DNA of 64,000 bases from Escherichia coli (GTDB lineage Bacteria > Pseudomonadota > Gammaproteobacteria > Enterobacterales > Enterobacteriaceae), in assembly GCF_030013595.1 (NCBI RefSeq), contig NZ_CP122768.1, one strand, 5' to 3'. Positions 50,557 through 53,357 of the stretch are shown here, piece after piece (position 1 is the stretch's first letter; each line of letters starts with the position of its first letter). Made by a program: the position numbers and the translations under genes. The notes beneath the pieces were generated by a model, which searched no databases, had not been told where the DNA came from, and worked only from the letters and a program-made list of their open reading frames with translations.

Positions 50557-51195
50557 ATGCCCGGGCGCTTTGAACTAAAACCAACCCTGGAGAAAGTCTG
50601 GCACGCGCCGGACAATTTTCGCTTCATGGACCCGCTGCCGCCGATGCATCGTCGGGGGATCATTATTGCCGCCATTGTATTGGTAGTCGGATTTCTGCTT
50701 CCATCTGATGATACGCCCAACGCGCCGGTGGTGACGCGTGAAGCGCAGTTAGATATTCAGTCGCAATCACAACCACCGACAGAAGAACAGCTGCGGGCGC
50801 AATTAGTCACGCCACAAAATGATCCTGATCAGGTGGCTCCGGTCGCTCCAGAACCAATACAGGAAGGCCAGCCAGAAGAGCAGCCGCAACCCCCCCAAAC
50901 GCAACCATTCCAGCCAGATAGCGGAATTGATAATCAATGGCGCTCTTACCGTGTCGAACCCGGTAAAACGATGGCACAGCTGTTCCGCGACCACGGGCTG
51001 CCCGCTACCGATGTCTATGCAATGGCGCAGGTAGAAGGCGCGGGTAAGCCGCTGAGTAATTTGCAAAACGGGCAGATGGTGAAAATCCGCCAGAACGCCA
51101 GCGGCGTGGTGACGGGCTTAACCATTGATACGGGGAATAATCAACAGGTCCTGTTTACCCGCCAGCCGGATGGCAGTTTTATTCGTGCGCGGTAG
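50557..51195 (+). CDS. ytfB: OapA/LysM-domain cell-division-associated protein (212 aa)
   Basis: ORF track 50521..51195 trimmed to MPGRFELKP; Pro/Gln-rich linker. Confidence 0.85.
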
Positions 51196-51295
51196 ATGAA
51201 GGGTCAACCAGAAGCCAGCTAAGGAGCGTCTCTTTGATGACCTTACGTCTGGCTTCCAGTGCCTGGGGGGAAACCATACTGATGTGTTGACATCC

Positions 51296-51317
51296 TCCAC
51301 GCCCTGAAGGACGTGGA
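51296..51317. repeat. Subterminal hairpin of the IS element (tnpB-distal end; shared core GCCCTGAAGGACG)
   Basis: tccac-gccctgaagga-cgtgga; 13-nt core identical to the hairpin at 52998-53017. Confidence 0.6.
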
Positions 51318-51329
51318 TCCCTGCTACGT

Positions 51330-52538
51330 TCAGGCTGTCGCCTGAATCATTTCGGTGGGTTCCTGCTTCAACGAGCGGCCTGACTGCACCATCTCTCCAC
51401 AGGCAAGAACGGCGTGCCCCGCCGCTAAAATGTTACGAGCGCCATTTACATCGGCGTTCGCTGTATATCCACATACCTGGCATCTGAATTTAATTTGTGA
51501 CAGGCGATTTTCTTTCGCTGTATGACCACAGCACGCGCAACGCTGGCTTGTGTACGCTGGCGGAACAGCAAGCACCTGACCGCCACGCCAGAGCTGCTTG
51601 TACTCAAGCTGGCGGCGCATTTCATACCAGCCCTGATCCAGTATCGAACGGTTTAAACCTGATTTTGCCCGGACATTGCGCCGCGGCTGGCTGACCGTAC
51701 CCGCTGCTGACTTTGACATGTTGCTGACCTTCAAATCCTCAATGACTATCATTGCGTGGTTTTTGCTGACGGTCGTTGTGACTTTGTGAAGGTAGTCCCT
51801 GCGGATATTTGCGATACGGGAATGCAGTCGCTGTATTTTGCGTTTCTGCTTCTGCCAGTTATTGCTGAATTTGACCTTGCGGCTTAACTGTCGCTGAAGT
51901 CTCGCCAGCTTCTTCTGTTTTTTCTGAAAACTGTTTACAGGCTCAAAGACTGTGCCATCTGACAGCGTGGCGAGTTTAACCACGCCAGCATCCAGCCCGA
52001 CCATTGATGCTGAAGGATGAACCGGAGTTGATACTTCACTTTCTGTCTGAATACTGATGTACCACTTACCGCAGGACTGGCTGACCGTGACATTTTTCAC
52101 AACACCCGTGACCTGACGGCTATTCCGGTAGCGCATCCAGCCCAGTTTCGGCAGAAAAATACGGCTGTTTTCCTGATAGAGCTTAACGCCCTACGGGTAG
52201 CGGAATGCATCATTCTGTCCCCGCTTTTTGAATCGGGGAAAAGCAGCCCGCTTCTGGAAGAAGTTTTTGTAAGCCCGCTCAAGGTCTTTCAGTGACTGTT
52301 GCAATGGCTGTGACGGGGCATCTTTAAGCCATTGCGTTTCAGTGGCATTTTTCCACTCAACCAGCCAGGAAGCCATTTTCCCGTAAGGGATGTATTTATT
52401 ACCGGCCTCATGATTCTCATTCTGAAGCGCCAGAGCACGATTGAAAACGAAACGACATGCGCCTGCGAAGCGCCTCATTTCACGCTCCTGTTGACCACCG
52501 GGTCTTAACTGGAATTTAAATGCCTGTCGTCGTTTCAC
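51330..52538 (-). pseudogene. tnpB: IS605-family TnpB (RuvC-like RNA-guided nuclease family), interrupted by one in-frame TAG
   Basis: ORFs 52191..52538 and 51330..52136 share one frame; my hand translation across the gap gives ...DAFRYP-stop-GVKLYQENSRIFLPKLGWMRYR...; C-terminal Zn ribbon CACCGH...CQVCG; RuvC-like D/E/D residues. Confidence 0.8.
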
Positions 52539-52608
52539 AGGTCAAATGATACTTTGGTCTGTGAAAAAAGAAACCTATATCCGGCGTGGAAGGTATTGTG
52601 TTTTCCTG

Positions 52609-53020
52609 ATGCATGTTCACCTGGTCTTTGTCCCAAATACCGACGCCAGATTTTTGACCATGACGCGACAGAAAAACTACGCACTTACTTTTCAAATGTA
52701 TGTGCTGATTTTGAAGCTGAACTGGTTGAAATGGATGGCGAACCAGATCACGTCCATTTGTTAATTAAATATCCTCCCAAACTGGCGATATCCAGTCTGG
52801 TAAACAGCCTCAAAGGCGTATCGGGTAGGTTACTGCGACGAGATCGACCAGATATTGCAGTCAGGTATTACTACAAAGGCGTTTTGTGGAGTCCTGGCTA
52901 TTTTGCCAGTAGCTGTGGAGGTGCGCCAATATCCGCCATCCGTCAATCCATTGAACAACAGCAAACACCTGGTCAGGTGGAAAACCGCGCCGTATATCCC
53001 CGCCCTGAAGGACGGGGTTT
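52609..53020 (+). pseudogene. tnpA: IS200-type Y1 (HuH) transposase TnpA, -1 frameshifted near N-terminus
   Basis: MHVHLVFVP in one frame, then KYRRQIF...DHVHLLI... (HuH motif) in another; switch within gtcccaaatac homopolymer context; no in-frame stop until 53159, so C-terminus undefined. Confidence 0.7.
52998..53017. repeat. Subterminal hairpin of the IS element (tnpA-distal end)
   Basis: cccc-gccctgaagga-cgggg; same loop and core as 51296-51317. Confidence 0.6.
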
Positions 53021-53033
53021 TACGGCACACCGG

Positions 53034-53357
53034 ATAAACCAGGCCAAGCGTATGCTGGTTGATCAAATAATATCCCCCAAGCGCAGCAATATTAATATAC
53101 ACCTGCAATGGGTCGATATCTGGCTTAAAAATATTGTGTTTCTTCCCTTCATCCAATAAGGATTCCATTAACTGCAAGTGCGCATGATTAATTTCTAAGA
53201 GACGCTGTGATTTTACATAATGCACACCTTTACTTTGGTTTTCACTATGCACAATTTTTAAAAACCAAGGATTAGCAATATAATATATCCTAGGTAAAAT
53301 CGATGATTTTTTCAATGGCTTTTTGTGGCTGGTTAACCTGCTGATTAACAAACGCAC
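53034..53357 (-). pseudogene. ytfA: Truncated ORF, N-terminal about 108 codons, ytfA-like; C-terminus replaced by IS sequence
   Basis: 175-codon ORF 52830..53357 whose last third is antisense to tnpA; identity with K-12 ytfA is from positional memory only. Confidence 0.45.

Follow-up and report, generated by a model that had tools for sequence, protein, structure and literature searches.

The guide RNA of the TnpB family overlaps the 3′ end of the tnpB gene and the right end of the mobile element, and the guide itself is drawn from the flanking sequence. TnpB makes this RNA from its own mRNA (PMC10278001). TnpB of the IS605-family elements is described as a homing nuclease acting on the vacated donor sites (PMC10690162). 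The domain limits were defined for the ISDra2 protein: REC spans residues 13-116, and WED is composed of residues 1-12 and 117-176 (PMC10097598). Residues Q121, T123, and N124 of this protein touch the target strand and the target-adjacent motif, and the T123A substitution abolishes cleavage (PMC10097598). The motif contacts Y52, K76, Q80, and T123 are all required, as each of the alanine mutants is inactive in cleavage (PMC10097598).

IS609, a member of the IS200/IS605 family, is present somewhere in 4,858 of 5,426 complete Escherichia coli genomes. In full-text literature searches, the IS609 TnpB was found mentioned only in passing, as a purified candidate, and nothing was found on the allele considered here. 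This allele lies in the window, i.e., the whole stretch of 64,000 nucleotides of E. coli DNA that was analysed, where the tnpB reading frame of an IS609 copy is cut by a single amber codon. Such a gene is very probably an inherited nonsense pseudogene, which arose by neutral decay within a fossil element.

The IS609 copy in ytfA and its transposase gene

The window copy of IS609 is located within the TetR-family pseudogene ytfA, flanked by rplI-yjfZ and ytfB-fklB, and shares 98.4-98.5% nucleotide identity with copies whose tnpA is annotated as IS609. Its boundaries were set by the empty ytfA site of the strain LAU-OXA and by the points where the plasmid copies cease matching. The features of the element and its surroundings are as follows:

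51287..53033, minus strand: IS609 copy (IS200/IS605 family), 1,747 bp, oriented with tnpB, inside ytfA; from the empty ytfA site and the ends of the plasmid-copy match
53034..53038, minus strand: target, or transposon-adjacent motif, 5′-TTTAT, adjoining the left end on its 5′ side; from the empty-site comparison
52998..53017, minus strand: left-end imperfect hairpin CCCCGTCCTTCAGGGCGGGG with a T·G mismatch; from the sequence, conserved in other copies
51297..51316, minus strand: right-end imperfect hairpin CCACGTCCTTCAGGGCGTGG with a T·G mismatch, followed by AGGATGTCAA to the element end at 51287; from the sequence and the comparison of copies
53034..53328, minus strand: upstream fragment of ytfA (TetR/AcrR-family pseudogene); from the NCBI pipeline (PGAP) annotation of an identical record, with the inner limit reset to the IS boundary
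51179..51286, minus strand: downstream fragment of ytfA; from PGAP annotation of the identical record and the empty site
52546..52970, plus strand: tnpA pseudogene (Y1/HUH transposase) with three lesions; from comparison with the intact 138-aa plasmid TnpA and with CP52E, and from the PGAP label 'frameshifted; incomplete'

The empty site reads GGTTTAT followed, across the insertion point, by CATATCAGTATGG, also written as GGTTTAT followed by CATATCAG. The occupied site reads GGTTTAT, the element ending in GTCAA, and CA(C/T)ATCAG, with no target duplication. IS609 in the window stands directly 3′ of TTTAT, and its right end reads ...GGAGGATGTCAA. As in other IS200/IS605 elements, imperfect hairpins are found at both ends in a subterminal position, the inverted terminal repeats are missing, and the insertion lies 3′ of a short specific target which is not duplicated. 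The uninterrupted ytfA site occurs in about 3,283 of 5,061 genomes, and at most about 1,780 have something inserted there. Even where IS609 is absent, ytfA has been labelled an incomplete pseudogene in one genome.

One IS609 copy was found in the window, and the same number on the matching chromosome, to which the count is restricted. A single chromosomal copy means that no intact IS609 TnpB can be supplied in trans from the chromosome. The promoter and terminator scan of positions 51100-53150 returned three promoter-like sites, with 1.6 expected, and none was placed for tnpB or for the guide RNA.

Three lesions affect tnpA. The first is a frameshift past ...HVHLVFV, caused by the loss of 1 bp between 52632 and 52633. 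The second, private to the window lineage, is the change of TAC to TCC at 52948, replacing tyrosine by serine (IRQYIEQQ to IRQSIEQQ); this tyrosine is the residue which we take to be catalytic, as known for the IS200/IS608 family. The third is the loss of the stop codon, TAG to CAG (52971-52973), found in every ytfA-locus copy inspected. The gene retains the HUH motif, HVHLL, and as a whole lacks what a functional Y1 HUH transposase needs. With three such lesions, the window copy is evidently unable to excise or transpose. Lesions of tnpA are carried by every ytfA-locus copy examined, and in one of these, from strain CP52E, tnpB is still intact.

The amber codon of tnpB and the history of the TAG allele

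The initial annotation proposed that two minus-strand ORFs, 52191..52538 (115 aa) and 51330..52136 (268 aa), belong to one frame separated by a single TAG. The ORF list places both in the same frame, and the one-frame translation of tnpB (52538..51327, minus strand) agrees: it contains 402 sense codons, codon 116 is the sole internal stop, and codon 403 is the natural one. The junction is read as ...DAFRYP, the stop, and GVKLYQENSRIFLPKLGWMRYR.... The resulting features are:

51330..52538, minus strand: tnpB (insQ) frame, 402 codons with one interruption; from translation, comparison with the intact allele, NCBIfam, and Pfam
52191..52193, minus strand: amber codon TAG, tnpB codon 116, ancestrally CAG (Gln) as judged by comparison with other alleles; from translation, this comparison, and the 44-mer counts
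52194..52538, minus strand: upstream tnpB fragment, 115 codons, matching WED strand β1 and REC by homology to ISDra2 TnpB; from Pfam, the alignment with PDB 8BF8/8EXA, and the domain limits of PMC10097598
51330..52136, minus strand: downstream tnpB ORF, 268 codons from Met135, with RuvC, the TNB zinc ribbon, and the remaining WED apart from its first strands; from the ORF list, NCBIfam, and Pfam

The internal ATG of Met135 occupies 52136..52134, 54 nt past the TAG. The NCBIfam TnpB model NF040570 is matched by the N-terminal piece over profile positions 1-112 and by the downstream piece over 147-388. Since the two matches are colinear, the continuity of the frame is not due to chance. The repaired TnpB scores 390.3 bits on this model, the downstream piece 266.8, and the upstream piece 95.2 (cut-off 100). 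In Pfam, the repaired protein contains HTH_OrfB_IS605 at residues 1-48, OrfB_IS605 at 162-277, and the Cas12f1-like_TNB zinc ribbon at 304-370. The motifs with the RuvC residues, GLDAG (181), VIEDL (265), and NADVNG (361), are intact, and so are the CxxC pairs of the zinc ribbon, CACC (334) and CQVC (353). No lesion besides the TAG was found in the window tnpB, and no frameshift. The TAG at codon 116 breaks the frame and precludes a single polypeptide of REC, WED, RuvC, and TNB. On every sequence criterion save the open frame, the gene is recognizably a TnpB gene.

The homology to ISDra2 TnpB (PDB 8BF8/8EXA/8H1J) covers residues 3-376 with E = 8e-56, and the motifs are colinear with D191, E278, and D361 of that protein. 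Gln116 aligns to Phe122 or Thr123, depending on the placement of a one-residue gap, and the residue at this position is encoded by a sense codon in the solved TnpB homologues.

The ancestral codon can be read from other alleles. At the same ytfA locus, strain CP52E has an intact tnpB of 402 codons. Its codon 116 is CAG, and its 1,209 nt align with the window gene without any indel. CAG is also present in two plasmid IS609 copies in which both genes are intact. The 44-nt probe centred on codon 116 was found in its exact CAG form in 4,676 complete-genome records and in its exact TAG form in 5. TAG is carried by 5 of 4,860 records, and more than 99% of the records retain CAG. The change at codon 116 is thus evidently a C-to-T transition from CAG (Gln) to TAG, which agrees with the single nonsense substitution that had been suggested at first from the window alone. 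A Dcm hotspot (CCWGG) was considered as its cause and rejected, as the context CCCGCAGGG contains no CCWGG.

Two isolates from pigs in the UK, HCP5S3_I2 and LCP30S3_I5, match the window with 100% identity. On the identical record of HCP5S3_I2, PGAP lists insQ/tnpB as a pseudogene with an 'internal stop', and it labels tnpA 'frameshifted; incomplete'. The case is ordinary, with the lesion already on record in the public annotation. The TAG occurs at the ytfA locus also in two strains isolated from the environment in Hong Kong, VCSW7 and VCSW5, on the same haplotype as in the window. From the TAG to 51501, their tnpB is the same as that of the window, and 0-1 differences follow up to the right end. 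Over the gene, they differ from the window at 9-10 other positions, in addition to a second stop in codon 8 (AAA to TAA). The 1-bp deletion of tnpA is shared by both. Such a distribution points to vertical inheritance of the TAG allele, which marks a lineage-level pseudogene and is not private to the window strain. The second stop is best read as progressive decay after the shared TAG.

The exact 268-aa downstream ORF is present on at least 51 public contigs. Three distinct contexts of this ORF were read back, and all are the ytfA locus; among its contexts, the window sequence recurs unchanged in one sequencing run and with 1 base altered in one draft assembly. The ORF has been deposited as a stand-alone 'transposase' (SQM82636.1, SQN23202.1, UniRef A0A2X6T554, and others), and such entries are an annotation artefact of the split pseudogene. 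The 'recent pseudogene' of the initial annotation is indeed a pseudogene, and it can be called recent only if compared with the insertion itself, as the TAG is fixed in a lineage which includes VCSW7, VCSW5, and the contigs mentioned above.

The Gln116 amber was found at three chromosomal IS609 loci: ytfA, gltX-yfeD (VCSW5), and ydcL-ydcO (22AR0118). The entire 5′ half of the VCSW5 gltX-yfeD copy, including both stops, matches that of the copy at ytfA in this strain, and these stops are apparently best explained by gene conversion between the copies. In 22AR0118, the TAG lies between markers of the ydcL-ydcO copy itself, located 62 nt upstream and 15 nt downstream, which suggests that the mutation arose there independently or came in on a conversion tract of <77 nt.

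Ten substitutions are private to the window lineage when compared with VCSW7 and CP52E, and they are concentrated in its left-hand 600 bp (53027-52426). The remaining 1,140 bp contain no window-private substitutions relative to VCSW7. Two of the private substitutions, at 52428 and 52426, match the plasmid state. Such a pattern suggests that the left part of the window copy is recombinant.

Translation products, guide RNA, and the origin of the stop

Translation of tnpB would end after 115 residues. The resulting product would consist of WED strand β1 and REC, with no nuclease. A product started at Met135 would contain RuvC and the zinc ribbon and would be devoid of REC and the first WED strands, so that neither the motif reading nor the heteroduplex channel would be available. 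Neither of the two fragments would form a complete nuclease, and no RNA-guided nuclease is expected from this copy.

The restart at Met135 (52136), which was offered initially as a source of a truncated product, would yield a TnpB with some activity, which might bind the guide RNA or, by means of RuvC and the zinc ribbon, act as a non-specific nuclease. The stretch of 268 codons has no further stop, reaches its TnpB score of 266.8 bits alone, and retains the RuvC and CxxC motifs. However, the pairing of the ATG at 52136 with the anti-Shine-Dalgarno sequence has an energy of -2.4 kcal/mol, no different from the mean of -2.39 over the whole gene, and among all in-frame start candidates in the first 150 nt past the TAG none exceeds the gene-wide background. 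The ATG is also separated from the stop by 54 nt, and its product would be missing the whole REC and the first WED strands, i.e., the motif contacts and the heteroduplex channel of ISDra2 (PMC10097598). The restart is accordingly left with no support, and a partially active product of this kind is very unlikely.

Two features of the guide RNA were placed at the 3′ end of tnpB:

51287..51500 (5′ limit provisional), minus strand: presumed omegaRNA scaffold, extending from within the 3′ part of tnpB into the right end; from family knowledge
51271..51286, minus strand: would-be 16-nt guide, in the flanking ytfA, CACATCAGTATGGTTT; from its position directly 3′ of the right end

The Rfam search over 51274-51457 (minus strand) returned only matches below the gathering score: RAGATH-18 (29.5 of 44.9 bits), HgcC (23.9 of 50), and sot0042 (17.1 of 88). 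The fold z-score of the putative guide-RNA region is -2.69, and this stretch is 0-2.8% divergent among the IS609 copies. Such signals give weak but consistent support for a guide RNA at the tnpB 3′ end. The third base of the guide, 51284, is C in the TAG lineage (window, VCSW7, VCSW5), whereas CP52E and the empty ytfA site both have T. After TTTAT, the empty site reads CATATCAGTATGGTTT, one base (51284) off the would-be guide, and the guide would thus mismatch the common empty-site allele at one position.

A stop located one-third into a gene usually causes transcriptional polarity. The early stop in tnpB would lower the transcription of the 3′ guide RNA in this manner, and no TnpB would be left to process or protect the RNA. 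Less, not more, guide RNA is to be expected from the TAG copy, because TnpB processes its own mRNA and the early stop would cause polarity. There is little probability that the Gln116 amber is a recurrent or selected off-switch of TnpB, or that the guide RNA is still made and has a TnpB-independent role.

Read-through of the amber codon, by a suppressor tRNA or by natural leakiness, would provide some full-length TnpB, as the initial annotation had also considered. With a supE-type suppressor, which inserts Gln, the product would be identical to the wild-type protein, as no other part of the gene is damaged. Such a mechanism is highly improbable. The stop is not conserved in IS609, given the 5 records among 4,860, and for this reason it does not appear to be programmed recoding. 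In addition, the second stop of the sister lineage is TAA, at codon 8, which an amber suppressor is unable to read. No tRNA gene was found in the window, and the glnV suppressor allele supE has exact matches in 154 of 5,423 records, of which the 30 listed are laboratory strains without exception. The proposal of stop-codon suppression is therefore without support.

The presence of the Gln116 amber at three IS609 loci could indicate that the loss of TnpB was selected, and not neutral, or that codon 116 is a mutational hotspot; the TAG of 22AR0118, placed between its own markers, would fit such a recurrence. However, the VCSW5 gltX copy is explained by plain gene conversion, so that of about 8,100 copies only one may be a recurrence, for which chance suffices. 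The site is not a Dcm site, and nearly all records keep CAG. The odds of selection or of a hotspot are consequently very long. A sequencing or assembly error is ruled out for practical purposes and has a negligible probability, as the change is a substitution, not a homopolymer indel, and independent assemblies and sequencing runs agree on this base, among them those of two pig isolates, VCSW7, VCSW5 (at two loci), and a draft NCBI assembly.

The inherited nonsense pseudogene in a fossil IS609 is the explanation preferred here. IS609 would have been inserted long ago after TTTAT in ytfA, and tnpA would then have lost its function, leaving the copy immobile. In a mobile element, TnpB with its guide RNA would cut the vacated donor site after the excision, and the element would be copied back. 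With tnpA dead, no vacated site is formed, and tnpB at ytfA would be left without a task and would gather lesions. The C-to-T transition would then have changed Gln116 to amber, and the allele would have been passed down vertically. The locus has the marks of a unitary pseudogene: the intact gene at the same place in CP52E, the lesions of tnpA, and the second stop in VCSW7/VCSW5. Further decay, which the initial annotation had named as evidence against its reading, is not seen within the window tnpB and is present in the partner tnpA and in the sister lineage; these lesions strengthen the reading of tnpB as a pseudogene.

Against deep decay stands the fact that the TAG is the only lesion of tnpB, with the catalytic and zinc motifs whole, so that one reversion would restore the gene. 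Among the ytfA-locus alleles, dN/dS is 0.36-0.52, calculated from only 9-20 differences, in comparison with 0.12-0.18 against the plasmid copies. The values at the ytfA locus are higher than in the plasmid comparison, yet such low counts do not show neutrality.

The two ORFs should be annotated as one IS609 tnpB pseudogene, not as two 'transposase' genes. The ytfA locus is a clean natural example of the decay of an IS200/IS605 element after the breakage of its transposase. The order of decay there would run from the lesions of tnpA to the nonsense codon of tnpB, and then to the second stop in the sister lineage, while gene conversion spreads the lesions. One possible use of the locus is in population studies of the survival time of orphan tnpB genes.

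Comparison with described systems

The closest described element is IS609 of E. coli itself, whose tnpB is named insQ. The window copy resembles it in the divergent arrangement of tnpA and tnpB, in the subterminal hairpins, and in the insertion 3′ of a TTAT-type target without duplication. The differences are the amber at tnpB codon 116 and the three lesions of tnpA.

The plasmid IS609-like copies (e.g., pEC213_2 and pVE362) are 1,748 bp long, have the same ends, and share 97-98.6% identity with the window copy from tnpB codon ~117 to the right end. Unlike the window copy, they have both genes intact, a left part which is about 11% divergent, and the target TTTAC in place of TTTAT. The chromosomal and plasmid forms of IS609 are thus mosaic: the divergence is about 11% from the left end through tnpA to tnpB codon ~114 (53033-~52197) and about 1.5% beyond (~52190-51287). 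The breakpoint of this mosaic is found near the boundary of REC and WED, not far from the amber codon.

In IS608, the cleavage site is known to covary with its guide. In the three chromosomal IS609 loci examined, the target is TTTAT, and AAAA is located just 5′ of the left-end hairpin (53018-53021 in the window). Two plasmid IS609 copies follow TTTAC, and in one of them, L009, AAAG is found beside the left-end hairpin. A different target thus accompanies the divergent left part. Such pairing of the target with AAAA or AAAG looks like the covariation of IS608, and the plasmid copy L008 does not fit it in a simple way.

TnpB of ISDra2 from Deinococcus radiodurans has the same WED-REC-RuvC-TNB order, D-E-D triad, and zinc ribbon as the protein encoded by the window tnpB before its interruption. 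It differs in being full-length, with its activity shown, and in reading TTGAT. At the position of Gln116, it has Phe122 or Thr123, and Gln is not conserved in the family.

The TldR proteins are encoded by full-length, conserved ORFs with a damaged RuvC site. They are similar to the window tnpB in one respect, as they are described as relatives of TnpB which no longer cut DNA (PMC10705468). In contrast to TldR, the window tnpB has intact RuvC motifs and a cut ORF, and its allele is rare, with no sign of conservation. TldR keeps the ORF and loses the active site, and the window tnpB is therefore the opposite case and not a TldR-like gene.
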